From contig CAYXKT010000010.1 in the NCBI GenBank assembly GCA_964465735.1, forward strand, positions 2,925-34,924: a stretch of 32,000 nt of DNA, read 5' to 3'. The notes below the pieces were generated by a model, which did not search any database, was not told the origin of the DNA, and saw nothing but the letters and a program-made list of their open reading frames with translations. Below, in pieces: positions 14,282-29,201 of the stretch (position 1 is the stretch's first letter; every line of letters begins with the position of its first letter). Position numbers and translations under genes: made by a program. The stretch is from an uncultured bacterium. GTDB lineage: Bacteria > Auribacterota > Erginobacteria > Erginobacterales > Erginobacteraceae.

Positions 14282-15427
14282 ATGAACGGCAGACGAAAAA
14301 TTACGATCCTCCACCTGATTGACAGCCTTCCCCGGGAGGGGGCGGAGATGGTGGTCTATGACCTGATCCAGCAGGGAAACCGGGAGGAGTTTAATTTCCT
14401 GGTCGTTGCCCTGACTCGGGGCGGCGGGGTGGCGGAGATGCTAAAAGCGATCGATATCCCGGTCGATATCCTGAAGAGAAGATCGTTTCTTGACCTCCGG
14501 GCTTTTCGCCGGTTGCTGCGCTTGATCAGAAATCGGAGGGTGGACGTGATCCAGACTCATCTCTTTTCCAGTCATCTCTGGGGGTGGGCGGCGGCGCTTT
14601 TCTTCCCCCGGGTCCGGCTGCTGCGGGTCGAGCACAATATGTCGGAATGGAAGAATTATCTCCGCCGGGGTCTGGATTATCTGCTTTCTTTTCGGACCGA
14701 CCGGTTTGTCGCGGTCTCCAAACCGGTCCGCGGATCCCTGGTCTCGCGCTGCCGTATCGACCCGGTTAGGGTTGAGGTGATTGTGAACGGATTGAATACC
14801 GACCGACTCCGGCCAGGTTCTGACCCGGCCGCCTGGCGGCGGAAACTGGAGATTCCGGCGGAGTCAAAGATTGTGGTCACCGCCGCCGCGCTTACTTCGA
14901 AGAAAGGTCACCGGTATCTTCTGTCGGCATCCGAACTGGTCTCTGCCCATCGGGATGATGTCTATTTTCTCTTACTTGGGGAGGGGGAACTGCGGGGCGA
15001 ACTGGAAAGTTCAATCCGGGAGCGGGGGCTAACCGATCGGGTATTTCTCCTCGGCTCCCGTTCGGACGCGGTGGAGATTATCTCCCAATCCGATCTCTTT
15101 GTTCTCAGCTCGATCCGGGAGGGTCTGCCGATTTCCCTGCTGGAGGCGATGGCTCTGAACCGACCGGTGGTGGTAACCGCGGTGGGAGGATGTCCGGATC
15201 TGATTGTGGAAGGTGAAAACGGCCTCCTGGTTCAGCCCCGGGACGGGGCAGGTCTGGCGGCGGCGATCGTAAAGGTTCTCGACTCTCCGGGGCTGGGAGA
15301 ACGGCTGGGAAAAGCGGCCGCCCAAACCGTGGTTACAGGATACGGGATGCGGGGAATGATCGAAGCTTACGAACAACTCTACCGGTTGAACCGGGAGCAG
15401 CTGAGAAGACGAGTGGGGAACCAATGA
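14282..15427 (+). CDS. Glycosyltransferase, GT4
   Basis: The ATG at 14282 gives the N-terminus MNGRRKITILHLIDSL. The ORF-track start at 14234 lies inside an intergenic repeat. The C-terminal motif is LSSIREGLPISLLEAMALNRPVVVTAVGG. Confidence 0.85.
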   Translation: MNGRRKITILHLIDSLPREGAEMVVYDLIQQGNREEFNFLVVALTRGGGVAEMLKAIDIPVDILKRRSFLDLRAFRRLLRLIRNRRVDVIQTHLFSSHLWGWAAALFFPRVRLLRVEHNMSEWKNYLRRGLDYLLSFRTDRFVAVSKPVRGSLVSRCRIDPVRVEVIVNGLNTDRLRPGSDPAAWRRKLEIPAESKIVVTAAALTSKKGHRYLLSASELVSAHRDDVYFLLLGEGELRGELESSIRERGLTDRVFLLGSRSDAVEIISQSDLFVLSSIREGLPISLLEAMALNRPVVVTAVGGCPDLIVEGENGLLVQPRDGAGLAAAIVKVLDSPGLGERLGKAAAQTVVTGYGMRGMIEAYEQLYRLNREQLRRRVGNQ

Positions 15428-15726
15428 GCGATCTCAAGCCGATCCCGGAAAAACGGAAGATCCGGGTCAGAACCCGGGTGGACGAGAGACGGACCGAGAA
15501 GATTAGCGGTCGGCTGTCCCGGGTAAAGGTCGTGGCCGTATTATTTGCGGCGGCGGTCGTGGGGATTGCCCTGGGAATTGTCCTGGGCCGGGGGGCTAAC
15601 CGGATGGTCAGTGTTCATCGCCAGCAGAAGCGGATTGCTCAGTCCCTGCCGAAGTTCAACCCCGATTCTTCGGACCTGGCGGAACTGGCTCCGGTGGCGG
15701 AACCCGGCAAGTCGCCCGCGCGTTGA
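15424..15726 (+). CDS. Small hypothetical single-pass membrane protein
   Basis: 100 aa. The start overlaps the upstream glycosyltransferase stop (ATGA). A basic N-terminus is followed by one hydrophobic helix (VKVVAVLFAAAVVGIALGIVLG). I recognise no family. Its last 88 nt overlap the convergent motB-like gene. Confidence 0.4.
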   Translation: MSDLKPIPEKRKIRVRTRVDERRTEKISGRLSRVKVVAVLFAAAVVGIALGIVLGRGANRMVSVHRQQKRIAQSLPKFNPDSSDLAELAPVAEPGKSPAR

Positions 15727-16463
15727 ATGATCTCAATCTCCACCCGGCGGTTCATCGCTCTCCCCTCGGGCGTGGCGTTGCTTGCTGCCGGCTGGTAGGG
15801 GCCATAACCGATCGCGCTGAGAATCCCCGGCCCGATCCCCTGTTCGTCGATCAGATACCGCATTACTGAACTTGCCCGGGCGCAGCTCAACTCCCAGTTG
15901 GAAGGATAACGGAGGGTATTGATCGGAAGGTTGTCGGTATGCCCACTGATCCGGACTTCAACGGTCGGGTTGTGGAGAAAGACCCGGGCCAGAAGGTTGA
16001 GAAACTCTTTCCCTTCCGGTCTCAGATCGGCCGAGGCGGGGCGGAAGAGAAAAGGGGCGAGGGGGACGATCTTCAGCTTCCACTTGCTGACGTCAACCCG
16101 GACGAAGCGGCTTAAATTGGCGTCGATGATATACTGCTGGATCTCCCGGGCCATCTGCCGCATCTCGTCAATCCGGGCCAGCTCCCGCATCTGCTGCTCT
16201 TTTAATTCCCGGATTTTATCCAGCAGTTCCTGCTCCTCCTGGGTCAGCTCAACATCGATCGCGTCTTCTATTCTTCGGTCGGAGAGCTGGATCAAACGTT
16301 CCCCGGCGATCCAGACCACCGGGATGTTCAGGGCCAGCATCGTGGAGAGGATGATGAAGAAAGTCATCATCAAGGTGGCCAGATCGGAGTAGGTGGTCAT
16401 CCACTCCGGCGGCCAGCCGGCGCCCCCCTCGTCCGGATTGAAATTTTGCCTTCTTCGGGCCAT
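15639..16463 (-). CDS. motB: MotB-like stator subunit, paralog 2 (OmpA-like peptidoglycan-binding C-terminus)
   Basis: 274 aa. The N-terminal TM segment carries the conserved Asp (WMTTYSDLATLMMTFFIIL). A periplasmic coiled coil follows. The OmpA-like domain reads RISGHTDN...PSNWELSCARA...GYGPYQP...NRRVEIEI. Confidence 0.85.
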   Translation of the reverse strand: MARRRQNFNPDEGGAGWPPEWMTTYSDLATLMMTFFIILSTMLALNIPVVWIAGERLIQLSDRRIEDAIDVELTQEEQELLDKIRELKEQQMRELARIDEMRQMAREIQQYIIDANLSRFVRVDVSKWKLKIVPLAPFLFRPASADLRPEGKEFLNLLARVFLHNPTVEVRISGHTDNLPINTLRYPSNWELSCARASSVMRYLIDEQGIGPGILSAIGYGPYQPAASNATPEGRAMNRRVEIEIIQRAGDLPGSATGASSARSEESGLNFGRD

Positions 16464-16482: not shown

Positions 16483-17298
16483 TTATCTCTCGGCCATCTC
16501 GGAGCCGAGATAGATATGGAACTCGACCCGGCGGTTGCGCCCCGTCAGTTCGGGGTCGTCTTCTTCATACTTGGGTCGGGAAGGGCCGTAAGCCGCGGCG
16601 GAGATCCTTTCCGGGGGGATCTCCCCCCGGTCAATGAGGTAATTGGCCGCGGCAATCGCTCGGGCGGCGGAGAGTTCCCAGTTGCTGGGGAACTGTTGCT
16701 GATGTCGGGGGTGGATCGGGGTGGAGTCGGTATGCCCCTCGATCCGGACCGAGGCTCCGGTCTCTTCAATCAGCCAGGCGATCTTGTCCAGAACCGGATA
16801 GAAAGACTGGAGAATTTCTGCCTTACCCTCCCGGAAAACCAGAGGCGCGGTAGGGATGATCACGATATCCTCCGCCGTTACCAAGAGCTCGACGTCGCCC
16901 TCCATCCTTCCCATCCGAACAAACTCCATCACCTCTTCCGCTTTCATCCGCAGGGTCCCCAGTTCGCTGAGGACGGTCTGCTGCTGTTTGCGGGGGAGCA
17001 GCTGGAATTGGGTCAGGATCCGGTACTCATCCTCGGTGACAAAATCCATCTGGCTGGTCTCGGCGGTTCCCCGGATGATATCGGCATCGTCCTCCTCCCG
17101 CATTTTGATGTATTTCTCGTCAATCCCGGCTACGGTCAGCGAATACCAGAGGACAAAGAAGGTCATCAGGATGGTTGTCATATCGGAGTAGGTGACCATC
17201 CAGTCCGGTGGCCAGTCCCCTTCGATCCCGCCGGCCCCGGACTCGGGGGCGATCCGTTCGTGCTCAATCTGGGGGGTGAGTTCAGTCTCGTCGGGCAT
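16483..17298 (-). CDS. motB: MotB-like stator subunit, paralog 1 (OmpA-like C-terminus)
   Basis: I chose the ATG at 17298, which follows GGGAGGAG and avoids overlap with motA; the ORF-track start is 17388. The TM segment with Asp is WMVTYSDMTTILMTFFVLW. The OmpA-like domain reads RIEGHTDS...PSNWELSAARA...AYGPSRP...NRRVEFHI. Confidence 0.85.
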   Translation of the reverse strand: MPDETELTPQIEHERIAPESGAGGIEGDWPPDWMVTYSDMTTILMTFFVLWYSLTVAGIDEKYIKMREEDDADIIRGTAETSQMDFVTEDEYRILTQFQLLPRKQQQTVLSELGTLRMKAEEVMEFVRMGRMEGDVELLVTAEDIVIIPTAPLVFREGKAEILQSFYPVLDKIAWLIEETGASVRIEGHTDSTPIHPRHQQQFPSNWELSAARAIAAANYLIDRGEIPPERISAAAYGPSRPKYEEDDPELTGRNRRVEFHIYLGSEMAER

Positions 17299-17344
17299 AG
17301 TATGTCTCCTCCCGGGAAGAGCTTCCCGGGCCCGTCCATCGGTC

Positions 17345-18097
17345 CTACTGCCGGCCGGCCAGGTAGGCGCGGAGTTTTTCCCGGACAATCTGGGAATTGT
17401 CGCCGGCCTGGATCGAGGCGATTCCCTCGATGATGATCTCGCGGGAGAGGGCCATATTGGTATTGTAGACCCGAATCTTCCCCGCTACCGGCATACAGAT
17501 CAACCCGGCGAAGAGGATCCCGTAAAAGGTGGTCATCAACGCGACCGACATATTCGGGGCGATGGTCGAAGGGTCGGTCAGAGTCCGCAGGAGCATAATC
17601 AACCCGATCAGGGTCCCGACCATCCCGTAAAGAGGAGCGTAAACCCCGACATCCCGCCAGAGTCGTTCGTCGGCGCCGATCTTCATCTGCAGATAGTCGG
17701 AGACGGTCTCCATAATTCCCCGGGTGATCCCGGGGTCAGTCCCGTCGGCCACCAGGTCAACCCCGATATCAAGCAGGGGGTAGCGGCCCTTGGTTGAGAG
17801 TTCCCGGATCGACATAAATCCTTCCTTCCGGGCCTTGACGGCCATCTCCACGATCAGGTTGATCACCGCTTCCGGGTCCATCACCGCCCCGACCAGAGTG
17901 AAGCGGAAGGCCTTTAAGCCGCTGATGATCTGGTAGAAGCTGAAGTTAATCATAATCGCGGCCGCCGTTCCCCCAAAGACGATGATCACCGACGGGAGGT
18001 TGAAAAAGTAGGGGAGCATCTCCGGTCCCCGGACGTAGATGGAGAGGAAGACGACGCTTACTCCGAGAATAAAACCGATTATGGTGCTGAGGCGCAT
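17345..18097 (-). CDS. motA: MotA/PomA-family stator subunit
   Basis: 250 aa. Two N-terminal TM helices are followed by a charged cytoplasmic loop (KARKEGFMSIREL). The C-terminal TM pair has conserved Pro contexts (YAPLYGMVGTLIG; ALMTTFYGILFAGLICMPVAGK). Confidence 0.9.
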   Translation of the reverse strand: MRLSTIIGFILGVSVVFLSIYVRGPEMLPYFFNLPSVIIVFGGTAAAIMINFSFYQIISGLKAFRFTLVGAVMDPEAVINLIVEMAVKARKEGFMSIRELSTKGRYPLLDIGVDLVADGTDPGITRGIMETVSDYLQMKIGADERLWRDVGVYAPLYGMVGTLIGLIMLLRTLTDPSTIAPNMSVALMTTFYGILFAGLICMPVAGKIRVYNTNMALSREIIIEGIASIQAGDNSQIVREKLRAYLAGRQ

Positions 18098-18103
18098 AGT
18101 TCT

Positions 18104-18310
18104 TTAACCTGTAGTTGGTTCAGGTTTAGGGGAGTTGATCTCCTGCTTGTAGCGGGTGACCTTGGTGATAATATCGTCAACCAGATCCCGGACAATATAT
18201 TGCTCCCCGGAGTTTAAGGTGATGATGGTGTCCGGCTTGGCTTCCAGCCGTTCGATCATCTCAGCGTTGATGATCAATTCCTGTCCGTTAAGCCTGGTCA
18301 GCTTGATCAT
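18104..18310 (-). CDS. flbD: FlbD-family small flagellar-type protein
   Basis: 68 aa. MIKLTRLNGQELIINAEMIERLEAKPDTIITLNSGEQYIVRDLVDDIITKV matches the FlbD pattern as I recall it. It sits directly upstream of motA, as in spirochaete and firmicute loci. TAATG overlap with the upstream gene. Confidence 0.8.
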   Translation of the reverse strand: MIKLTRLNGQELIINAEMIERLEAKPDTIITLNSGEQYIVRDLVDDIITKVTRYKQEINSPKPEPTTG

Positions 18311-20412
18311 TATTTCTTGGCGTTCTCCCCCGCCTCGTCCTGGAAGTGGGGGACGGTAACCAGTCCGTCGTGGGAAAGCTTGCGGATAACGGCGATAATT
18401 TCGTGTTGGGCGGACAGGGTCTTACTGGACAGCTTGCGCAGCACATCCATAATCTCTTCCTGGGCCTCGACCGCCCGGGAGTGGGGGATACCCCCCATCA
18501 CCGTCAGGTCTTCTTTGAGCATCGCCCCCGCCCGTTCGGTCAGGCCGGTAAAGAACTTGGTCTGGACTTCTTCCGACGAACCCCGCAACGCCATCTTTAA
18601 AGTGGTCCGTTCCACGGTCCGAAAAATTTCGTCGATAATCGATTGATCGACGGCCAGCATTGCTTCATTGAAGGGGAGTTCCTTCCCCTCTTCCTCAATC
18701 TGGACCTTTTTGACCGATTCCATATCTTCTTTCAGGCGGGAGCGGCCCTTGTCGGTCATATTTTTCATAAACTTCGAGCGGACATCTTCGGGGGCGTCAA
18801 CCAAAGCGGCACCCAGGACTTCGATATTCAAGTTGTGGATCAAGGTCTCCACATCCTTGTCCTGAAGAGTCTTGATGTCTTCGAAGAGGAACATCCGTTT
18901 TCTGACGTCGGTAGCCATCGCCGGATTATTGCTATCCATCTTCTCCAGCAGGACCTTGGCCATCGCGTAGCGGCTGGAGGAGAGCATATCCGCCAGGACC
19001 CGGACCCCGGTCACCGGCTGATAATCTTTCCTCAAGCGGACAATCTTCAGTTTTCTCTCGAGGAAGTCCTTGATCTCGTCGGCCATATCCTCTTCCTCGG
19101 TCAACTGAGTCATTGCTCGAGCCATCTCGAACTGCTTCTCCTCGTCGAGAGCCTCAAAGACCGAGGCCGACGTCTGGGCGTCGAGCTGGGAGAGGACCGC
19201 CGCCGCTAATTTCGGCTCCTCGTCCTTGATCAGAAGGATGATATCCTCCGGATCAGTGGTCTTGATGTATTTAAATGGCTGCTCAACCAGGCTGGGGGAT
19301 CGTTCCAACTGCTGGCTCATCAGTTCCTCGAGGTTGCCCAGGACCTGGATCACCTGCCCTCCACCCCCCCCGAAACCTCCGTCTCCGGAGGGCGCGGCGG
19401 CCGCGGCCGCCGCCGGCGGTGCTCCGGGAGCGGCCGCCGGAGCACCGGGTACACCCGGCGCGCCGCCGCCGCCCAATCCGCGTCTCCGCTGTTCATCGAG
19501 CAGATCGGAAAGGGTGTCTCTCATTTCGGTCAGCAGGACGTCGGATTCCTGGGCGGGGCTGCTTAAAAGATCCCGGATCTCTTCGAGGATCCCGACATCG
19601 ATCCTCCCTCCGCCGGACCCGCTCCCGACCTGCATTTCCATCAGTTCCTTGATCCCGGTCAGGGTGGCCTCCCGGGTATCGCTGGAGATCCCGGAGAGGG
19701 CCTTCTTCAGTTCTTCCAACTCCGCCTGCCGCTGCTTTCGCTCTTCTTCTGAGAGATGCATCCCGCCGGCGGCCGCGACACCGCTCTCGGGGCTGCCGGC
19801 CTTGACCTTCCGCATCGGAAAGTAGATGGCGGCGATCAGGATTAAAAGGGCAACCAGCGCGAGAATGGAGTAGAGCAGGTAGTTCTGCTGGGCGGCGGAG
19901 GGAGGAGAGAAATCTCCCCACTTCTTGGGGATGACCCGGACCGTATCCCCCCGGGCGGGATTGATCCGGGCCCAGCGGGTGATGGCTTCCTGGATCTGCC
20001 CCGGTTCATCCGGGGTCCCCAGATCCGAAGCCGAGAGTTTTTCATCAGCTTCGACCGTGATGTGGATGCTGGAGATTTGGGCGAACATCCCCCGACTGGC
20101 CGGCAGGGCCTGCTCTCTTTGTTCGGTCGTCGGGATCCGGACCCCCGGCAGTCGCTCCAGGACCCGGGCTGTGTCAGGATCCTGGAGGTCGAAACGATCG
20201 GAGAGGGTGACTTCCACACTGACAATACTCCGGTGGGGGCCAAGCATTGTGTTAAGATTATTCTGTAGAGAGGCTTCCAGGGCGGAGGCGATCTGGGTGG
20301 CGTCGCCCCGCTGGATGGTCTGGGCCCCGGTGGCCGGGATCAAAAGGAAAAAGCATAGGACCGGGAGAAAAATGTTCCCGGAGTTTCGGCTGAAGAAAGT
20401 TATCCTTGCCAT
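18310..20412 (-). CDS. Membrane-anchored FliF-like / FliG-like fusion protein (TM - ring-building periplasmic domain - TM - linker - FliG middle and C domains)
   Basis: 700 aa.
- Residues 1-30 form a signal or TM segment.
- Residues ~31-176 have FliF-like segments (LNTMLGPHRSIVSVEVTLSD; ISSIHITVEAD; NPARGDTVRVI just before the TM).
- TM2 spans residues 177-198.
- Residues 311-353 are a Gly/Ala/Pro low-complexity linker.
- Residues ~378-700 are FliG-like (PFKYIKTTDPEDIILLIKDEEPKLAAAVLSQL; MFLFEDI; torque-helix-like RSKFMKNMTDKGRSRLKEDM and QTKFFTGLTERAGAMLKEDL). Confidence 0.7.
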   Translation of the reverse strand: MARITFFSRNSGNIFLPVLCFFLLIPATGAQTIQRGDATQIASALEASLQNNLNTMLGPHRSIVSVEVTLSDRFDLQDPDTARVLERLPGVRIPTTEQREQALPASRGMFAQISSIHITVEADEKLSASDLGTPDEPGQIQEAITRWARINPARGDTVRVIPKKWGDFSPPSAAQQNYLLYSILALVALLILIAAIYFPMRKVKAGSPESGVAAAGGMHLSEEERKQRQAELEELKKALSGISSDTREATLTGIKELMEMQVGSGSGGGRIDVGILEEIRDLLSSPAQESDVLLTEMRDTLSDLLDEQRRRGLGGGGAPGVPGAPAAAPGAPPAAAAAAAPSGDGGFGGGGGQVIQVLGNLEELMSQQLERSPSLVEQPFKYIKTTDPEDIILLIKDEEPKLAAAVLSQLDAQTSASVFEALDEEKQFEMARAMTQLTEEEDMADEIKDFLERKLKIVRLRKDYQPVTGVRVLADMLSSSRYAMAKVLLEKMDSNNPAMATDVRKRMFLFEDIKTLQDKDVETLIHNLNIEVLGAALVDAPEDVRSKFMKNMTDKGRSRLKEDMESVKKVQIEEEGKELPFNEAMLAVDQSIIDEIFRTVERTTLKMALRGSSEEVQTKFFTGLTERAGAMLKEDLTVMGGIPHSRAVEAQEEIMDVLRKLSSKTLSAQHEIIAVIRKLSHDGLVTVPHFQDEAGENAKK

Positions 20413-21246
20413 TTATTCTGCCTCGTACTCAGGGGTGGCTTCCGGTTCCTCGACTTCTCCCCCGGTAAACTCATCTTCACTGACCGGAGAAGTATTCTCC
20501 GCCAGTTCCGGGTAACGGGGGACGAGGAGGACCATCCCCGGATAGATCAAGTCGGGGAGGAAGATCTGGTCCCGGTTGGCGTGATAGAGCAGAAGCCAGC
20601 GATAAGGGTCGTTATAGATCTCCTCACGGCCGGCGATCTTCCAGAGATTGTCATCTCTTCTGACCATATAAGTATATGTCGCGGCCCGCTCCACCGCCAT
20701 CCCCGACGGGGCCGGTCCAGGGGCAACCGCTCCATCCCCGATCCAGGCGGTGGCGGGTGGAGGCGCCATCTCTAATTCCTCGATCTGGAATTCCAGGGCC
20801 TCGATCTTCAGCGCCCGGTCATCGGCGATTTTTCGCAGGGAGGCCGCCTCTTCAGTCAGTCGGTCCCTTTCCCGGCGGAGGTGTTCGTTGGCGGCCACTT
20901 CATTGAGGAGTTCCTCCCGGATCTCCCGGCAGTCCTCTGAGGCAATTAAAAACTCCTCCCGGTCGATCTTCCGAGCCGGTCGGCGGCGGGTGAATTCATC
21001 GGACCGCGGGTTGATGAAGATATAACCCCGGTTTCCCCAATCCCGGACCGTCTCTCCCCCGTAGATTCCCGGTTGGGGACTGTAGGGATAATCGATTACC
21101 CCGGTGGTCCGACCCGATTTCTTCCAGACACTCTCCAATCCCGTGCGGTCGATATTTATCGACGACTGTCCGTGCAGCTGGGGGGGGGATAAAAATCCGG
21201 AGAAAAGGAAGATGGAAATTATGATTTCGAAGGATGTCTTGAGCAT
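20413..21246 (-). CDS. Secreted coiled-coil protein with C-terminal LysM peptidoglycan-binding domain
   Basis: 277 aa. It has a signal-like N-terminus (IIISIFLFSGFLSPPQLHGQ) and a central heptad-rich region (LRRERDRLTEEAASLRKIADDRALKIEALEFQIEELE). The LysM pattern is YTYMVRRDDNLWKIAG...YNDPYRWLLLYHANRDQIFLPDLIYPGMVLLVP, followed by an acidic tail. GGGGAGG RBS. Its stop abuts the start of the next gene. Confidence 0.8.
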   Translation of the reverse strand: MLKTSFEIIISIFLFSGFLSPPQLHGQSSINIDRTGLESVWKKSGRTTGVIDYPYSPQPGIYGGETVRDWGNRGYIFINPRSDEFTRRRPARKIDREEFLIASEDCREIREELLNEVAANEHLRRERDRLTEEAASLRKIADDRALKIEALEFQIEELEMAPPPATAWIGDGAVAPGPAPSGMAVERAATYTYMVRRDDNLWKIAGREEIYNDPYRWLLLYHANRDQIFLPDLIYPGMVLLVPRYPELAENTSPVSEDEFTGGEVEEPEATPEYEAE

Positions 21247-21517: not shown

Positions 21518-22552
21518 ATGGAAAGAAAAAGTTTCGTCCGGATTTCCCTTCATCTGCTCTGGGGGATCTTGATCATAGTAGTTCTCCTCCTGTTTTTTCG
21601 GGAACGGTTGGGCCACCTGCCCGGTTTTTTCCGGCGACTGAAAAGGGAGCCCCAGGCCCTGGTCTCGGTCTTCAAGCCTCGGGAGATGGCCGGGGTCAGT
21701 TTCTCCTTCGCTGATCCGGAGGACCGGGCCGTCTGGAAGACCTCGGGATCCCGGCTGGAGGCCGTCCCCGCTTTCTTCGGGGCGGATGAAACCTGGGGTC
21801 GGGTTACCTATCAGCCTTCCGGTTCCCCGGGTTTGCTTTTGACCGATGAGACAATGGGGGTGATGGACTGGCGGGGGGCGGAGAGTCTCTCCTTCTCCGT
21901 CTATAACCCCCAGACCTGGTCGATCAACCTCAAGATCAAGGTCAAGGATACCTCCGGCCACAGTTTCCAGAGTGAACAGGAGATCCCTCCTCGGGTCCGG
22001 ACTGTGGTCACCATCCCGGTCCGGGATATCGCTTCCCGGCTTGATCTGAGCCGGGTCGGCTACCTGAATATCTTCCTCTGGGATCCGACTACCGCCACAG
22101 ATCTGTATCTGATTGACTTCGCCTTCCCCGCCCCTGGCCGGCCCTCTGTCCCTTCCGGCCTGGTCAAATTTATGGGGCTACAGTTTCCCTCCGTGCTTCG
22201 GCCGGGAGAGGAGGTTGAAGCAGTCTTTTATTTTCTCCCCAGTCGTCCGCTTGCCGCCGACAGTGTTCTTCTGATCCGGCTCCGCCGGGGCGAGGAGCTC
22301 TTCTCCCTGGTCCGGGTTGATCCGCCCACCCCGACCAGCCGCTGGCGACCCGGACGGTTGGCCAAGGTCGGGCCGTTCCCGGTGGAGATCCCCGCCGATC
22401 TCCATCCCGGCCGCTACGATCTGGAGGCGATCCTGGCCCAGCCGCTTTCCAGCGCCCGGGGCGAGGAGCTGGTCTTTCAGCCCTACCAGAACCCGGAAAT
22501 TCTTGGTTTCAAGGTCTCGGAAATAAATGTGACCGGTGAGGGAGGGATGTGA
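21518..22552 (+). CDS. Hypothetical membrane-anchored protein (CBM-like beta-sandwich plus 'PGxYD' beta-sandwich domain)
   Basis: 344 aa with an N-terminal TM helix (LHLLWGILIIVVLLLFF). The central and C-terminal regions are paralogous to the next gene (LHPGRYDLEAILA...FQPYQNPEILGFKVSEINV versus EPGEYDIRAGLL...REPYLNPEIENFIIGRLTV). A promoter-like element lies upstream. Confidence 0.6.
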   Translation: MERKSFVRISLHLLWGILIIVVLLLFFRERLGHLPGFFRRLKREPQALVSVFKPREMAGVSFSFADPEDRAVWKTSGSRLEAVPAFFGADETWGRVTYQPSGSPGLLLTDETMGVMDWRGAESLSFSVYNPQTWSINLKIKVKDTSGHSFQSEQEIPPRVRTVVTIPVRDIASRLDLSRVGYLNIFLWDPTTATDLYLIDFAFPAPGRPSVPSGLVKFMGLQFPSVLRPGEEVEAVFYFLPSRPLAADSVLLIRLRRGEELFSLVRVDPPTPTSRWRPGRLAKVGPFPVEIPADLHPGRYDLEAILAQPLSSARGEELVFQPYQNPEILGFKVSEINVTGEGGM

Positions 22553-22614
22553 TACATTTTACCCTGGCGGGGACAGAATGAATATCCGACAAGAAACATC
22601 CAATGAAGAAGGGG

Positions 22615-22640
22615 AGACGGTCCGCTCTGCGGGACCGTCT
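22615..22640 (+). terminator. GC-rich hairpin downstream of 21518-22552
   Basis: AGACGGTCC (22615-22623) pairs perfectly with GGACCGTCT (22632-22640) around an 8-nt loop. It lies about 60 nt after the stop. The 3' tail (GGTTATCTCC) is only weakly U-rich, so intrinsic-terminator function is uncertain. Confidence 0.4.
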
Positions 22641-22801
22641 GGTTATCTCCGCCGTCTTGATTATTTGACAGAAATAGTGGGTGACAATCTGTCAGTGTGA
22701 GCTATAGATTTTAGCCGCGAGTTAAGTGTGGCGGGAAGTAGTCTCAATTTATTGACAGGCAGATAAGCTGTCAGAACACCGGAAAAACCGAGGATAAAGT
22801 T

Positions 22802-24289
22802 ATGAAAAAAACCGTCTCTTCTGCCGCCCTTTTTGCCGCGTTTCTTTCTCTCTTCTCCCTCCCCGCGCTTTTTGGGCAGGGATATGGCTCTTATCGGACC
22901 GAGGTCCGGGAAGGTGATCCGAGACTGCAACTGGTCAGTTTCAGTCTCCCGACCGAGATCCCCCAGGGAGAACTGATCAGCGGCAGCCTCTTCTTCAAGG
23001 CGACCCGGCCCCTGGAAGAGAACCTGAAAGTATTTTTTCATCTGGTCCGCCCCGGCCAAACCAAGACCGTCCTCAACGGCGACTTCTCTCCTCCCAACTC
23101 CACCCGGCTCTGGGATGTCAACCAGGTGGTGGAGGCGGGTCCTTTCGAACTGTCGGTCCCCTTTAACCTGGAGCCGGGCGAATACGATATCCGGGCCGGA
23201 CTGCTCCAGATTGTTCGGGAGGAGGATCTGGTCCGCTATATCCGGGAGCCATACCTCAACCCGGAGATTGAAAATTTTATTATCGGCCGGCTGACGGTCC
23301 AGGGGACGGAGAGGGCCGATCTCTCGGGTCCCTCTGAGCTTGATCTGATCGCCTTCGACAACGAGGAGGAGATCATCTTCTGGGAGGCCTCGGGGGCGAA
23401 GATGGAGTTTGCCGGCTACTCCGAGGAAGGGGAAGAGACGGTCTCCGCCGTCCGGGCTACCATCCTCCCCGGGATTGTTGAGTACCCGGGGGTGAGTCTG
23501 CAGAATTTTTTTAATCTCTTGCCCGCTCGGTCCGACTGGTCACTTTACGATACTCTCCGTCTCCACCTCTCTCTTCCGCCGGGAGACTCGGCCGGTCAGC
23601 TGCGGCTTTTGATTGAAGACCGGGCCGGGCGGCGTTATGAGTCCAACATAACCGTCTCCCCGGGCCGGACCAAGCGGCTCAATCTCTCCACGGTCGATCT
23701 CAGCGGTTCGATCAATGTCTCCGCGATCCGCCGAATGAAGCTTTACCGGGTCAACCCGACCTCAGCTTTCACCTTCTACATCTCCCACCTCCAGCTGATC
23801 TCCCGGGGCCAGCCGACCGGGAAACCGGCGTTGACTTTTGTTCGGATGGAGGCGCCCGATCAGGTCCGGCGGGGCCGCCCCTTCCAGATCCGGTTCTTCT
23901 TCAGCATCGACCAGCCGATCTTCCAGAGTCATAAGCTCTTTACTCACATCTACCGGGTCAACGATATGGCCGGGAAGGCCACCTCGGATATCTCTCTTCC
24001 CCAGCCGATCCGGAACTGGCGGCTGGGCGAGGAGATAGCGGTTGATTCCGGCCCCCTGATGATCTCCACTGATGGCCCCCCCGGAACCTATGTGGTTCGG
24101 GCCGGGCTTTATGTCGTCGCCGACAGCTCCGGCCGGGGCTATGTCAAGGTCGATGACTGGTTGGCCTATGACAGCAGCCAGGAGGTGATCAACATTATCC
24201 AGCCGGATGGACCGGTCGATTACATCAAGCAGCCCTATACCAACTCCGATATCCAGAACTGGGAGGTGGGGACGATCACGGTCGAATGA
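22802..24289 (+). CDS. Hypothetical secreted protein (domain X - CBM-like - domain X)
   Basis: 495 aa. It has a signal peptide (AALFAAFLSLFSLPALFGQ) and a GAGGA RBS 7 nt upstream. Two copies of the 'PGxY..AGL...PY.N..I....G.ITV' domain flank a central CBM-like segment. Confidence 0.65.
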   Translation: MKKTVSSAALFAAFLSLFSLPALFGQGYGSYRTEVREGDPRLQLVSFSLPTEIPQGELISGSLFFKATRPLEENLKVFFHLVRPGQTKTVLNGDFSPPNSTRLWDVNQVVEAGPFELSVPFNLEPGEYDIRAGLLQIVREEDLVRYIREPYLNPEIENFIIGRLTVQGTERADLSGPSELDLIAFDNEEEIIFWEASGAKMEFAGYSEEGEETVSAVRATILPGIVEYPGVSLQNFFNLLPARSDWSLYDTLRLHLSLPPGDSAGQLRLLIEDRAGRRYESNITVSPGRTKRLNLSTVDLSGSINVSAIRRMKLYRVNPTSAFTFYISHLQLISRGQPTGKPALTFVRMEAPDQVRRGRPFQIRFFFSIDQPIFQSHKLFTHIYRVNDMAGKATSDISLPQPIRNWRLGEEIAVDSGPLMISTDGPPGTYVVRAGLYVVADSSGRGYVKVDDWLAYDSSQEVINIIQPDGPVDYIKQPYTNSDIQNWEVGTITVE

Positions 24290-25427: not shown

Positions 25428-26213
25428 ATGGTCAAGGAACCCAGGATTTTAATTCTGATGTACCACAGCGTCTCCGATTCCGGGGAGTACGGAAGACTGC
25501 CTGCGGACTGTCGCCCGCTTGGCTATCGGGTGGGGGTCCGCGATCTCCAAAATCATCTGGAAATTCTTCACCAAGAGGGTTGCTCTACCATCCTTCTTCA
25601 GGATCTGGCCGAGGCCCGGGCAGGGAGGGCTAAACTTCCTCCCCGTCCGGTTATCTTGACTTTTGACGATGGCTACGGGGATAATTTCTCCTCTGCCCTC
25701 CCTCTGCTCCGTTCCGCCGGCTGCCGGGCAGCCTTCTTTCTCAGCGTCTCTTACCTCGGCCGTCCGGGGATGTTGACCTGGGAGGAGGCCTCGCGCCTGG
25801 CCGCCGCCGGGATGGAGATTGGCTCTCACGGAATGAACCACGGACTTCTCTCTGGGAAAAGCCGGGCGGAACTTCGCCGGGAACTGGAAGAGTCCCGCCG
25901 GTGCCTGAAGGAAAGGCTGGGGTTGGCGGCGGAGTATTTCTCTCTCCCCCGGGGTTACCTGCCCCGGGCGCTCCCCCGGCTGGCTCTCCGGGCTGGTTAC
26001 CGCGGCCTCTGTACTTCTCGGCCGGGTTTGAATACACTCCGGACCGATCCCTTCCGGCTTTGCCGTTTCCCGGTCCGGTCCGGGATTTCTCCCGAAGAGT
26101 TTCGGGCGCTCATATCCGGACGGGGCTGGAGGTATTCCCGGATTTATCTGTCCGAGACGGCTCGGGATCTGGCCCGGATCCGTCACTACCGGCCGGGGAG
26201 AGAGGGGCGATGA
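25428..26213 (+). CDS. Polysaccharide deacetylase (CE4 / NodB-homology), second paralog
   Basis: 261 aa with ILMYHSV, LTFDDGYGDNF and IGSHGMNH. The architecture matches the gene at 13330-14160. Confidence 0.8.
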   Translation: MVKEPRILILMYHSVSDSGEYGRLPADCRPLGYRVGVRDLQNHLEILHQEGCSTILLQDLAEARAGRAKLPPRPVILTFDDGYGDNFSSALPLLRSAGCRAAFFLSVSYLGRPGMLTWEEASRLAAAGMEIGSHGMNHGLLSGKSRAELRRELEESRRCLKERLGLAAEYFSLPRGYLPRALPRLALRAGYRGLCTSRPGLNTLRTDPFRLCRFPVRSGISPEEFRALISGRGWRYSRIYLSETARDLARIRHYRPGREGR

Positions 26214-27073
26214 CGACAGCTGCCACGGATTGTGAAGTCCAGGGGGGCGAGAGGAGATCTGTATTCGAACTGGTCTTGATGACGGCCGCGGTCCTCTTTC
26301 TGTTTTTCCCCACCCTGGTCTGGATGAACGCTCGATTTTTCGAGGAGCACTCCTATTACGGACACGGCTGGCTGATCCCGCCGGCGATCGCCTTTCTCAT
26401 CTACCATCGTCGGGAATTCATCCTCTCCGTCCCGTCTCGCCCCAGCAGAGTCGGACTTTTCTGCCTGATTCTTTCTCTGGCTCTGCATCTGGGAGCCCGT
26501 TTATTCGGGGTCAATTTTCTCTCCGCGCTTGCCCTGCCGATGGTGTGTTTCAGTCTGGTCCTGGCCCGGTTCGGACCTGGCCGCAGTCGGTACCTGATCG
26601 GTCCCTTACTTCTAAGCGTGTTGATGATCCCTATTCCGGGGATCTGGATTATCGCTTTGACCTTCCGGTTGAAGATGGTCGCGGTTGATGCCGGGGTCGC
26701 CCTGGGGAGGTTGCTCGGATTGGAGATTGTTCGGGAGGGGATCGAGATCATCCTCCCCACCGCCCCCCCGGGGGAGACTCTGAAGATCGGCGATCCCTGC
26801 AGCGGTCTGCGATCGCTGTTCTCCTTTGGCGCCTTAGGCGGTTTTTTCGCCCTGCTCCTCCCGATTACTGCTCCCCGAAGGGCCATCGTCTTTTTTGCCG
26901 CGGTTCTTTTAGCCCCCTTGAGCAATCTCCTCCGGGTGGTGGCGTTGATCGTTCTGCGACAGACGGCGGGACCGGAAATCCTTGCCGGTCACTGGCATAT
27001 CGCTCTTGGGGTGGGGGTCTTCTTCTTCTGTTTCTTAATCTTTCTCCAGGTGGCGCGATGGCTGCTCCGTTAA
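26210..27073 (+). CDS. Exosortase (EpsH-type transpeptidase)
   Basis: The ATG at 26210 gives an ATGA overlap with the deacetylase; the ORF-track start at 25901 lies inside that gene. The protein is a multi-pass membrane protein. It shows SYYGHGWLIPP near the N-terminus, the catalytic-Cys motif GDPCSGLRSL, and later conserved Arg (NLLRVVALI) and His (GHWHIALG) contexts. Confidence 0.85.
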   Translation: MTTAATDCEVQGGERRSVFELVLMTAAVLFLFFPTLVWMNARFFEEHSYYGHGWLIPPAIAFLIYHRREFILSVPSRPSRVGLFCLILSLALHLGARLFGVNFLSALALPMVCFSLVLARFGPGRSRYLIGPLLLSVLMIPIPGIWIIALTFRLKMVAVDAGVALGRLLGLEIVREGIEIILPTAPPGETLKIGDPCSGLRSLFSFGALGGFFALLLPITAPRRAIVFFAAVLLAPLSNLLRVVALIVLRQTAGPEILAGHWHIALGVGVFFFCFLIFLQVARWLLR

Positions 27074-27705
27074 CCGCTCAGCGGGCCTACTTAAGCGGGC
27101 TTCTGCTTGTCCTGCTGGCCGGGACCCTCGTCTGGCTGATCGATCGGGACCGGGAGGATATCCTCCCCGCCGGAGATCTTGGACGCCTGCCGTTGGAGAT
27201 CGGGGATTGGGTTGGGGAGGATATCCCGGTTGGAGCCCGGGAGCGGGCGATTCTCGGGACCGATAATCTCCTGCTGCGCCTTTATCGGAAGGGAGACTGG
27301 TTCCTTTATCTATATCTTCTCGAGTGTTCCTCCAACCGGGCCAGCTTCCATCCCCCGGAGTACTGCTATGTCGGGGGCCGGACCGAGTTGGTGGAACGAG
27401 GTCGGAAGACTGTGTTCTGGGATGGGGGAGAGATTCCAGCGCATCGGATGGTCTTTCTCGGGCCGCGGGGGAAGAGTCTGGTCTATTACTGGTACACCTA
27501 TGGGGAGCGGGTTCTGGGTGATTATTATCGCCAGCAGTTGCTGATCATAACCAATATCCTGCTCGGCCGGCCGCGGCCGGCACTGCTGGTCCGGGTTTCA
27601 GTTGAGGGGGCTTTTCCGCAGGAGGTCGGGGAGGAGATGATCGCCGATTTTTCCCGTACTGTTCTCCCCGCCATCGAGCGCGATCTGCTGAAGACTGCCC
27701 CCTGA
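27058..27705 (+). CDS. EpsI-family exosortase-associated protein
   Basis: 215 aa with one N-terminal TM helix. EpsI-like patterns are LPLEIGDWVGEDIP, FHPPEYCY and ALLVRVS. It overlaps the exosortase by 16 nt. Confidence 0.7.
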   Translation: MAAPLTAQRAYLSGLLLVLLAGTLVWLIDRDREDILPAGDLGRLPLEIGDWVGEDIPVGARERAILGTDNLLLRLYRKGDWFLYLYLLECSSNRASFHPPEYCYVGGRTELVERGRKTVFWDGGEIPAHRMVFLGPRGKSLVYYWYTYGERVLGDYYRQQLLIITNILLGRPRPALLVRVSVEGAFPQEVGEEMIADFSRTVLPAIERDLLKTAP

Positions 27706-27744
27706 CCCTGATCCTGCCGATCTCCGGTCACCGAATCCCGACTC

Positions 27745-27774
27745 AAAAAATATAGAATCCAGAATTCAGGATTC
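27745..27774 (-). terminator. Weak hairpin plus U-tract downstream of the sugar transferase gene
   Basis: On the minus strand, GAATCC-N8-GGATTC is followed by TATATTTTTTG. It lies in the convergent gap between EpsI and the sugar transferase. The stem is only 6 bp. Confidence 0.35.
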
Positions 27775-27800
27775 AGAATTCACCTTGACTCCCGACTTTC

Positions 27801-29201
27801 TCAGACTGCCCCTTTCCCGCTCAGGATCACCCCCAGGGTCTTGAGCACGATCAGAAGGTCGAGGGCCAGGGACATATTCTCCAGGTAGAAGATGTCATAG
27901 AGAAGCTTCTCCCGATGCTCGATGGTCGAGGAGGAATAACCGTAAGTCACCTGAGCCCAGCCGCTGATCCCCGGCTTGACCTCCAGCCGCTCGGCATAAA
28001 ACGGGATCTTCTCCACCAGTTCGCGGACAAAGCAGGGTCGCTCCGGCCGGGGTCCGATCAGGCTCATCTCGTTGATCAGGACGTTGTAGAGCTGGGGTAA
28101 TTCATCGAGCCGGAATCTCCTTAAGAACCTCCCTGTCCTGGTGCAGCGGGGATCGTGAGGACAGGAGAATTCCGGTCCGTGAGTCTCACTGTCAGCGAAC
28201 ATCGTCCGGAATTTATAGAGGATAAAGGGCTGACCGTGAAGTCCCGCCCGCTCCTGTCGGTAGAGAACCGGGCCGGACGAGGTCAGTTTAATCACCAGGG
28301 CGATCAGGAAGAGGAGGGGGGAGAAGACAATCAGGCCGATCAGAGAGATCGCGGTATCGATCAGTCTCTTCAGGTCCTTGTAGCGGATTACCCGATTGGA
28401 GATCGGGCTGATCATCGGGACCAGTTCGGTCGGGGAACCGGCCATCGATCCGATGGTCGCCTCGTAGAGACTGGGGACGATCCGGAAGACGACATCGGTC
28501 TGGCTGAAGAGGGTGAAGATGGAGAGGATGGTCTCTTTCGGCATCTGGCTGGCGATCACCACCTCGTCAATTGGATAGAATTCAATCAACCGGGGAATAT
28601 CGTCAATCCCCCCCAGGTGGAATGGATTCTCCGGCAAAAGGTCGGTGTCTTCCCTCAAGCTGATGAAGCCGACCAGTCGGCGGGAGATATGGGCCTCCCG
28701 GAGCAGACGGGTGGCAATTCTCTGGGCCCCGTGATCGGTGCCCACAATCAGAGTGTGGGAGACGAAATAGTCTTTCCCCAAAACCAGGTTGATCAGTTTT
28801 CGGGCCAGCAACCGCCAGGTGATGATCAGGATTATGGTGAGCAACCAGGAGAAAAAGATCACTGTCCGGGGATAGGCGAAAGCCCGGAAGAAGAAGGCCG
28901 CCACCATAATGATCAGGGTGCTGGCGGTAGTGGCCTTGATAATGTTGAGGACGGTATCGTAGGTGGTCTTGTACTTTGGCTTGTCGTAGAGGCCGTAAAT
29001 AAAAAAGCTGAGCAGCCTCAAGACAATAATCGGCAGGAGAATCTTTAAGAAATCGGCGAAGTTGGCTCGGGGGAAAGGGCCTTCAGTCCGCCCGAAGCGG
29101 AAAAGGAATCCGGAGATTTCGGCGCCCAGAACCAGCAGAGAGTCAATGGTCAGTGAGGCGAGGATCAGGGTGAGCTTGGAAGTCCGACGCTTCCTATTCA
29201 T
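27801..29201 (-). CDS. Polyprenyl-phosphate glycosyl-1-phosphate transferase (WbaP/EpsB-type initiating sugar transferase)
   Basis: 466 aa with N-terminal TM helices. The C-terminal 'bacterial sugar transferase' domain reads KRLIDTAISLIGLIVFSPLLFLIALVIKLTS.GPVLYRQERAG, YKFRTM, DELPQLYNVL...MSLIGPRPERP and PGISGWAQV. Confidence 0.9.
   Translation of the reverse strand: MNRKRRTSKLTLILASLTIDSLLVLGAEISGFLFRFGRTEGPFPRANFADFLKILLPIIVLRLLSFFIYGLYDKPKYKTTYDTVLNIIKATTASTLIIMVAAFFFRAFAYPRTVIFFSWLLTIILIITWRLLARKLINLVLGKDYFVSHTLIVGTDHGAQRIATRLLREAHISRRLVGFISLREDTDLLPENPFHLGGIDDIPRLIEFYPIDEVVIASQMPKETILSIFTLFSQTDVVFRIVPSLYEATIGSMAGSPTELVPMISPISNRVIRYKDLKRLIDTAISLIGLIVFSPLLFLIALVIKLTSSGPVLYRQERAGLHGQPFILYKFRTMFADSETHGPEFSCPHDPRCTRTGRFLRRFRLDELPQLYNVLINEMSLIGPRPERPCFVRELVEKIPFYAERLEVKPGISGWAQVTYGYSSSTIEHREKLLYDIFYLENMSLALDLLIVLKTLGVILSGKGAV

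Follow-up and report, generated by a model that had tools for sequence, protein, structure and literature searches.

Can the torque-generating core of a flagellar motor exist as a machine of its own, with its rotor reduced to a single polypeptide? The question is raised by a 32,000-nucleotide stretch of contig CAYXKT010000010.1 (assembly GCA_964465735.1, positions 2,925–34,924; here, the window) from an uncultured bacterium of the family Erginobacteraceae, phylum Auribacterota. One of its genes encodes a periplasmic domain resembling ring-building motif 3 (RBM3) of the flagellar protein FliF, joined through a transmembrane (TM) helix and a long linker to the middle and C-terminal domains of FliG, and stator genes follow it directly. 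The reading that we prefer, and hold to be on balance probable, is that of a flagellum-derived, stand-alone rotor–stator module, whose one-polypeptide rotor is descended from, or shares ancestry with, the flagellar membrane–supramembrane (MS) ring and cytoplasmic (C) ring. The parts of the fusion protein are listed below with the evidence that defines them, which includes AlphaFold2 (AF2) models and their predicted local distance difference test (pLDDT) scores.

18310–20412, minus strand: RBM3–TM–linker–FliG (middle and C-terminal) fusion, 700 amino acids, a putative one-polypeptide rotor (open reading frame (ORF), Pfam and NCBIfam matches, homologues)
20323–20412, minus strand: N-terminus, residues 1–30, a predicted signal peptide or a membrane anchor equivalent to the first TM segment (TM1) of FliF (basic n-region, hydrophobic core at 14–27)
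19897–20316, minus strand: ring-building motif of the FliF RBM3 type, residues 33–172, within the periplasmic domain of residues 31–176 (AF2 model, Foldseek, profile)
20083–20196, minus strand: short loop replacing the FliF β-collar insertion, residues 73–110 (low pLDDT in the monomer model, alignments)
19819–19884, minus strand: TM helix, residues 177–198, highly conserved NYLLYSILALVALLILIAAIYFP, then MRK (hydrophobicity scan and family alignment)
19282–19818, minus strand: cytoplasmic linker, residues 199–377, 179 residues (composition, invariant alignment columns)
19045–19251, minus strand: FliG middle domain, residues 388–456 (Pfam FliG_M)
18691–18945, minus strand: MFLFED hinge (507–512), then ARM_C copy A, residues 490–574 (first Pfam FliG_C stretch)
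18343–18645, minus strand: ARM_C copy B and canonical C-terminal helix bundle, residues 590–690 (alignment to Thermotoga maritima FliG residues 143–215)

The frame runs through its 700 codons without interruption, and the order of its parts is a signal peptide or TM1, a periplasmic domain of ~140 residues, a single TM helix, a linker of ~180 residues and the FliG middle and C-terminal domains. This order, with a second TM segment at residues 177–198, had been proposed in an initial annotation made from the sequence alone, and is borne out by the hydrophobicity scan (TM helix at ~178–198) and by Pfam. The motifs quoted there are all present in the translation (GPHRSIV at 58–64, ISSIHITV at 113–120, ARGDTVRV at 153–160 and DEEPK at 397–401), and its observation was confirmed in nearly all details; a tandem duplication, an exopolysaccharide (EPS)/exosortase setting and a large, diverse superfamily, described below, go beyond it. 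The N-terminus is hydrophobic over residues ~14–30 and its end, ATGA/QT, resembles a signal-peptidase site, the same small-x-small/Q motif being found in most family members. A lipoprotein signal was ruled out, there being no lipobox and no conserved Cys. The linker contains 29 Gly, 21 Ala and 11 Pro among its 179 residues, with helical segments between Gly/Ala/Pro-rich tracts, and residues 293–309 are a strongly conserved helix, LLTEMRDTLSDLLDEQR. It is apparently located where the C-terminus of FliF and the N-domain of FliG would be.

The periplasmic domain has an α-β-β-α-β secondary structure in both AF2 models (core pLDDT ~80–90); the model of the domain alone has a pLDDT of 73 overall and ~88 in the core. 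When this model was compared with the PDB, the first 17 Foldseek matches were all FliF RBM3/S-ring structures from Salmonella and Vibrio (E 4e-3 to 2e-2, probability 0.96–1.00, query TM-score up to 0.56), that is, the fold is not an unrelated one. A generic ring-building motif of the SctJ/PrgK or SpoIIIA type was ruled out, since PrgK, EscJ and SpoIIIAF appear at E 0.15–0.75, ranked under the 17 FliF matches. A sequence profile of the N-terminal region compared with PDB sequences gave no FliF match, only noise at E 0.85–6.6; the FliF relationship came from the fold search and from a much larger representative library. In this library, of 1.84 billion representative proteins, the periplasmic-domain profile yielded 388 matches at E ≤ 1e-3, and it matched canonical FliF proteins exactly at their PF08345 region (RBM3, YscJ_FliF_C) with E 1e-9 to 1e-5. 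The checked matches of 500–560 residues are canonical FliF proteins, containing PF01514 and PF08345 and matched at RBM3. PF08345 is in turn matched weakly by six of 13 family members, and one distant relative, P0028, passes its gathering score over the full profile length (30.6 bits, cutoff 23.8). Three motifs of the domain find their partners in canonical FliF: the start motif leaaLeqsLqskLdtliGp..s.V.V pairs with IEVAMEQKLQTMLDRVLGPSRSVVRV, the strand-2 motif IssihitvevD with IRRLSVAVLVD, and the pre-TM motif npaRGDtl.v with LPARGDTLSVV. Predicted fold and sequence profiles thus support a FliF-RBM3-like domain, and the resemblance to RBM3 first noticed in the translation holds for both the top Foldseek matches and the profile matches at PF08345.

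There is, as was also claimed at the outset, no room for RBM1, RBM2 or the β-collar. RBM1 and RBM2 (the SctJ-homology region, PF01514) have no Pfam match in the fusion, whose periplasmic region comprises just ~145 residues. The span between the first two strands is 38–40 residues (73–110), versus roughly at least 100 in canonical FliF, where ~70–90 additional residues between strands 1 and 2 form the β-collar. The 38-residue loop has a conserved LPGV motif, in which Gly90 never varies within the family and Pro89 hardly ever does; across the wider superfamily, the consensus of the loop is LPGxP.

The cytoplasmic part matches FliG_M (PF14841; E 3.5e-11, 43.6 bits against a cutoff of 25) and, from residue 490 and in two stretches, FliG_C (PF01706; E 7.6e-35, 119.9 bits). 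FliG_N (PF14842) stays below threshold in the fusion, at 16 bits against a cutoff of 25, with the weak match located within the middle domain. A profile–profile alignment (hhalign) with a canonical FliG begins at residue 144 of that FliG, so that no FliG N-domain is detectable; Pfam and this alignment start agree with the initial annotation, in which the FliG part began at the middle domain. The possibility that the linker is a hidden FliG N-domain was ruled out by profile–profile alignment, and an MgtE_N-like identity of the cytoplasmic part was rejected (MgtE_N E 2.5e-4 versus FliG_C E 7.6e-35). The score for TIGR00207, the fliG equivalog, is 149.4 bits over profile positions 106–304, under the full-length cutoff of 226.7 because the N-terminal third is absent.

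The alignment to T. maritima FliG (1LKV) runs through the middle domain, the inter-domain helix, the Gly linker and the MFLFED hinge and, after a gap in the query, through ARM_C and the C-terminal bundle. It pairs DEEPKLAAAVLSQL of the fusion with SEHPQTIAVVLSYL and places DEEPK (397–401) opposite EHPQ, the position that the initial annotation had given it. Gly469, in the GG-linker, shows no variation within the family and almost none in the superfamily. The torque helix, TERAGAMLKEDL...PHSR (residues 625–646), aligns with KRAAALLKDEL...VRLK of T. maritima FliG and retains the charged residues of canonical FliG, namely an Arg, an acidic pair and another Arg, which we take to be the counterparts of R281, D288/D289 and R297 in Escherichia coli. 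The ARM_C to torque-helix region contains an internal tandem duplication of ~50–70 residues, in which ~520–570 aligns with ~592–642 (hhalign probability 96%, E 4e-9; pairwise score 62 versus 26.8 ± 4.7 for shuffles). Copy A carries a first torque-helix-like segment, MTDKGRSRLKEDM, at residues 552–564. From the tandem duplication (18343–18945, minus strand) it follows that each subunit has two KED-containing torque-helix-like motifs. The ARM_C duplication is shared by three other representatives, P0032 (Omnitrophota), P0034 and P0058, and is not found in most other fusions.

The fused architecture is shared by 27 full-length homologues at 50–78% identity, from NCBI, JGI, ENA and Logan assemblies. 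When one genome was scanned for each species, 12 loci turned up in 11 metagenome-assembled genomes (MAGs), labelled Candidatus Erginobacter occultus, “PVC group bacterium” or uncultured. Around the fusion, these loci contain the operon whose other members are, in the window:

20413–21246, minus strand: secreted coiled-coil protein with a C-terminal LysM (peptidoglycan-binding) domain, 277 amino acids, the first gene of the operon (Pfam and NCBIfam LysM)
18104–18310, minus strand: FlbD, 68 amino acids (Pfam FlbD, E 1.2e-24)
17345–18097, minus strand: MotA/PomA-type stator A subunit, 250 amino acids (NCBIfam PomA 181 bits, MotP 179 bits)
16483–17388, minus strand: MotB paralogue 1 (Pfam MotB_plug and OmpA; Asp69 in YSDM)
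15639–16463, minus strand: MotB paralogue 2, 274 amino acids (Pfam MotB_plug and OmpA; Asp27 in YSDL)

The genes, in the order LysM protein, fusion, FlbD, MotA, MotB1 and MotB2, are tightly packed, the FlbD start codon overlapping the stop codon of the fusion. That the fusion adjoins its own stator genes, another point of the initial annotation, is therefore correct, with FlbD, MotA/PomA and two MotB following directly. The order is held in 11 species-level MAGs (Auribacterota/PVC) wherever the contig extends, with identities across the MAG family of 67–93% for MotA and 50–77% for the fusion, and an Omnitrophota genome (locus L005) has the same six-gene operon. By all appearances, the operon is under selection. 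A LysM orthologue is found directly upstream of the fusion wherever the contig extends (10 species-level MAGs) and in L005; in the window protein, the Pfam LysM match at residues 193–243 is weak (E 0.0047, under the cutoff), and NCBIfam LysM matches reach E 3.8e-8. FlbD likewise follows the fusion in the loci of the related MAGs and in three distant ones, L005, L006 and L007.

MotA matches the solved flagellar MotA/PomA structures with E 3e-42 to 7e-37 and retains Arg90, Pro155 and Pro203. Both MotB paralogues keep the channel Asp, the plug and the OmpA-like peptidoglycan-binding domain, and each has a separate orthologue in Auribacterota and in L005, which suggests an obligate MotB heterodimer in the stator. 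MotB1 probably starts at Met31 (position 17298), because its orthologues align only from residue ~31 on. Upstream of the LysM gene, the 270 bp that separate it from its divergent neighbour contain promoter-like sites, which are weak evidence. Spirochaetes and Firmicutes have a flagellar superoperon with the same gene order, fliF-fliG ... flbD-motA-motB, and an origin of the operon by deletion of all genes between fliF-fliG and flbD-motA-motB would fit. A further ORF of 100 amino acids with one hydrophobic segment (15424–15726, plus strand) overlaps the 3′ end of MotB2 convergently and is possibly no gene; it was rejected as a member of the module, having no counterpart in any related locus.

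Which kind of locus harbours this operon? To its left are ClpX, UppS, CdsA, Dxr, RseP and IspG, followed after IspG by a polysaccharide flippase, glycosyltransferases, an oxidoreductase, an acetyltransferase and a deacetylase. To its right are two unknown proteins, a metallophosphoesterase, a deacetylase, an XrtA-like exosortase, EpsI, an EPS priming glycosylphosphotransferase and a GT2 glycosyltransferase, of which the exosortase (130 bits to the EpsH subfamily), EpsI and the priming enzyme occupy 25901–29201. The same exosortase/EPS setting is found at 53% identity, and the operon lies within an exosortase/EPS locus in all 11 genomes. The two proteins nearest to the operon on this side are defined by their conserved position:

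21518–24289, plus strand: two paralogous proteins of 344 and 495 amino acids, transcribed divergently from the operon (21518–22552 and 22802–24289)

Neither has a Pfam or NCBIfam match. They have hydrophobic N-termini and share the repeated motif ...PY.NPEI..F..G...V..., and an orthologue of the 495-residue protein occupies the same position in all nine related MAG loci with sufficient contig, seven of which have a clear orthologue of the 344-residue one. It is by this conserved position that they may be tied to the motor.

No export, rod, hook, filament or switch (FliM/FliN) genes were found in the 32-kb window or in 20 related loci; an Rfam scan of the window gave no riboswitch or other RNA family. 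Williams et al. (2022) reported that the Auribacterota MAGs of Ace Lake encode no flagella, including the Ca. Erginobacter occultus type MAG 3300035698_653 (95% complete). This MAG belongs to the closest named species and carries the operon (locus L009), and the lineage is probably one without flagella.

The arrangement extends well beyond this lineage, as judged from the 150 best representatives, clustered at 50% identity, of the periplasmic-domain search. At least 69 of them have RBM3 at ~30–170, a TM helix and then FliG middle and C-terminal domains. A further 39 are FliF-like by length and match position, the three checked by Pfam being canonical; 30 are shorter than 400 residues with no FliG part detected, and three of the four with source names are marked as partial; 12 were classed as “other”, at least two of which are also fusions according to Pfam. 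The named fusion members belong to Omnitrophota and Elusimicrobiota. An alignment-based homologue search started from 54 diverse fusions recovered little more than the close family again, with fragments and one canonical FliG besides, and gave no taxonomy for the distant fusions. MotA and MotB come after the fusion in each of the five distant contexts that were read sufficiently far downstream; three distant contexts have giant ORFs or genes for outer-membrane barrels next to the fusion, and one has polysaccharide-export genes. The gene contents of distant loci are as follows (coordinates are those of each locus; TPR, tetratricopeptide repeat).

L007, 4910–16699: Wza, Wzc, a 478-residue fusion, FlbD, MotA, MotB, a 1,301-residue FG-GAP/CHU_C protein, a PorP/SprF–TPR protein and LytR_cpsA_psr
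L006, 1–14854: ORF of more than 8,833 residues, a TPR protein, a fusion with TPR, a 1,091-residue protein, FlbD, MotA, MotB and Wzy_C
L008, 1–13238: ORF of 16,931 residues, a UPF0164/TPR barrel, a fusion, MotA, MotB and further genes ending in a PilZ protein
L003/L004 (L003, 1–11914): ORF of more than 3,202 residues, a PorV-like/TPR protein and a fusion with TPR

L007 is an unusual mix, with genes like those of the type IX secretion system (T9SS) and capsule genes around a flagellar-type motor. In L003, L006 and L008, an outer-membrane-barrel-like or TPR protein (UPF0164/PorV/Toluene_X) stands between the giant ORF and the fusion. The main survey of Omnitrophota giant ORFs makes no mention of flagella or stators. 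One representative, P0131 (836 residues), has a histidine kinase (HisKA and HATPase_c) fused N-terminally to the RBM3–TM–FliG unit, and at L005, the Omnitrophota locus, the module has a histidine kinase and a GGDEF response regulator next to it; this kinase fusion and these neighbours hint at a link to signalling.

How might such a module work? The RBM3-type periplasmic domain would oligomerise into a ring just outside the inner membrane, as FliF does with about 33–34 subunits, while the single TM helix and the long, flexible linker would hold the FliG middle/C-terminal unit in the cytoplasm. These covalently tethered units would together make up a cytoplasmic ring, in which the extra ARM_C copy may stand in for contacts of FliM or of neighbouring subunits, and would present the torque helix to MotA. 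The co-transcribed stator would comprise FlbD, the PomA-like MotA and the two paralogous MotB, and its MotA5–MotB2 units, anchored to peptidoglycan, would use ion flow to turn or push the ring, as in the flagellar motor. In the periplasm, the LysM protein could plausibly serve as a partner or as a bushing. The output is most likely a cell-envelope or surface function, such as the handling of polysaccharide or surface proteins, and not a propeller, because the module sits in an exosortase/EPS locus and its closest named relative reportedly has no flagella; an output tied to polysaccharide would be favoured by analogy with AglRQS–Nfs/Glt, GldLM–T9SS and the EpsE–FliG clutch.

Several points weigh against a stand-alone rotor–stator module. 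What the sequences show are the domain identities, the retained residues of the stator–rotor interface and of the ion channel, the conservation of the operon and its non-flagellar setting; ring formation, rotation and the output are inferred. The Foldseek E-values are modest (~4e-3) and the root mean squared deviation is high, the latter because of the 73–110 loop, and in the Pfam scan the fusion protein alone reaches no FliF threshold. The EHPQR motif, the FliM-binding surface, is only partly kept, as DEEPK retains the Glu and Pro and not the His and Gln. In MotA, position 98 is Arg instead of the canonical Glu, with Glu at 99 (ARKEGFMSIRE, residues 90–99; window 17800–17830, minus strand). 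Arg98/Glu99 is common to the closest relatives, more distant ones have Glu at the usual spacing, and the FliG Arg that normally pairs with MotA Glu98 is retained in the fusion. The link of the module to polysaccharide is one of gene position. Finally, the absence of flagella is one paper's statement on MAGs that are 88–100% complete, and not a genome-wide census of our own, and another Auribacterota MAG, A. fodinae, does encode flagella (Williams et al., 2022).

A broader proposal, which we put forward only tentatively, is that the whole RBM3–TM–FliG plus MotAB superfamily of Auribacterota, Omnitrophota and Elusimicrobiota is an undescribed flagellum-independent rotary machine, a minimal membrane ring turned by MotAB and working on the cell surface. 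It would move, extrude or organise exopolysaccharide in the lineage of the window, while in the distant relatives its load would be giant surface proteins, handled by way of outer-membrane barrels. The machine may have arisen from the flagellar motor core by reduction, or it may be a simpler relative of that core that has survived.

Must the ring rotate at all? It might instead be a docking platform, a non-rotating ring that gates or senses the ion flow of MotAB as part of a signalling or mechanosensing unit for exopolysaccharide production or surface behaviour. The exopolysaccharide/exosortase locus would suit such a role, as would the histidine kinase and GGDEF response regulator that adjoin the Omnitrophota relative, the kinase fused to P0131, the PilZ protein close to the L008 module and the lack of an evident axle or other load-bearing part. 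We nevertheless consider it unlikely, given that the charges of the torque helix, the MFxF hinge, Arg90 of MotA and the plug and Asp of MotB, all features of a torque-generating interface, are kept, and that a sensor has no obvious need for two MotB and FlbD.

A still less probable explanation is an unusual but genuine flagellum, of which the fusion would be the MS-ring and FliG, the remaining genes being elsewhere in the genome. A flagellar-type stator with FlbD, the flagella encoded by A. fodinae and the incompleteness of the MAGs speak for it. However, RBM1, RBM2 and most of the β-collar are absent; in an MS-ring, the export gate sits within these parts, which also hold the rod. There is also no FliG N-domain and no FliM or FliN nearby, flagellar genes are reportedly absent from the type MAG that bears the operon, and the polysaccharide context is found in 11 of 11 genomes.

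That the module is the remnant of a lost flagellum, in decay and without a function today, might be suspected from the reduced domain content, the loss of the FliG N-domain and the partly degenerate EHPQR motif, but this is very improbable in view of the intact frames, the retained functional residues, the packed six-gene operon in 11 species down to 50% identity (MotA 67–93%) and the at least 69 diverse representatives with the fused architecture. Lastly, nothing was found in favour of an assembly error or frameshift that joined two separate genes, and it can practically be discounted: the Gly/Ala/Pro low-complexity tract at ~19350–19800 is the error-prone kind of site that the initial annotation had singled out, but the ORF is collinear and continuous, tract included, in the 27 independently assembled homologues and in 11 genomes, with both the TM helix and the linker conserved.

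If a stand-alone rotor–stator module does work without other flagellar parts, the torque-generating core (ring, FliG and MotAB) can exist and be selected alone, which bears on the evolution of the flagellar motor and on the question of the smallest working rotor. With one rotor gene and three to five partners, it would also be a very small system for structural and single-molecule studies of stator–rotor coupling without the switch complex. The repeated neighbours, namely polysaccharide-export, exosortase, giant-ORF and outer-membrane-barrel genes, suggest an unrecognised motor-driven surface system. The phyla concerned are known almost wholly from metagenomes.

Compared with known systems, the periplasmic part is closest to FliF RBM3/S-ring (6SCN, 6SD1, 7BK0 and 8T8P), with which it shares the α-β-β-α-β fold, the LxxxLGP...V.V start, the I..l.v.v.vD strand 2 and the pre-TM aRGDtl.V motif, as well as its place directly before the TM helix that leads to the FliG-binding side. 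Unlike FliF, the fusion has no RBM1/RBM2 (PF01514), its collar insertion is reduced from ~100 to 38 residues, its N-terminus is like a cleavable signal peptide and, because FliG is covalently attached, it has no separate C-terminal FliG-binding peptide. With FliG (T. maritima 1LKV/3AJC, Salmonella C-ring 8UMD), it shares the middle domain, the inter-domain helix, the Gly linker, the MFxF hinge, ARM_C and the C-terminal bundle with its charged torque helix. It differs from FliG in lacking the N-domain, in having DEEPK in place of EHPQ and a tandem duplication, in being anchored to the membrane and in scoring below the TIGR00207 cutoff.

Engineered or spontaneous FliF–FliG fusions in Salmonella and Vibrio, reportedly described by Francis in 1992 and Thomas in 2001, are said to show that rings can still assemble when the two proteins are covalently linked 1:1; unlike the fusion of the window, they consist of full-length FliF and full or nearly full FliG in a complete flagellum. 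The initial annotation, which knew of no natural, minimised fusion beside its own stator genes, needs a correction in that a natural FliF–FliG fusion as such has a precedent in Chlamydiaceae, with another domain set and no stator: a protein of ~330 residues with RBM2, one further ring-building motif and a FliG middle-domain-like region only, proposed to work with the injectisome and with no torque-helix domain and no MotAB or FlbD partners reported (Bergeron, 2016, PeerJ; PMC4768692). It is likewise a natural join of shortened FliF-like periplasmic and FliG-like cytosolic parts in a PVC-group lineage regarded as non-flagellated. By the published description, the window protein differs in having RBM3 only, the FliG middle and C-terminal domains, 700 residues and stator genes in its vicinity. 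The searchable literature, which omits most subscription journals, yielded no account of an RBM3-only FliF joined to the FliG middle and C-terminal domains, with a dedicated FlbD–MotAB in flagellum-less lineages. The window protein is accordingly a variant of known families with partial precedent, the chlamydial and the engineered fusions being the only ones found.

Ion-driven 5:2 motors outside the flagellum are AglRQS of Myxococcus, which acts with Glt/Nfs in gliding and in spore-coat polysaccharide, and GldLM/PorLM of Bacteroidota, which acts with the T9SS and SprB; in Bacillus subtilis, the EpsE–FliG clutch is a physical link between an EPS-operon product and FliG. The module of the window resembles the non-flagellar motors in a putative coupling of an ion-driven stator to the handling of surface polysaccharide or adhesin, and distant relatives of the fusion adjoin PorP/SprF, PorV-like and CHU_C proteins. 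AglRQS has, moreover, one A subunit and two different B subunits, its AglQ/AglS pair being comparable to that in the stator described here. AglRQS and GldLM are, however, TolQR/ExbBD-like or GldLM motors without FliG or a FliF ring, whereas the window combines a flagellar-type MotAB with what would be a FliG-bearing ring.

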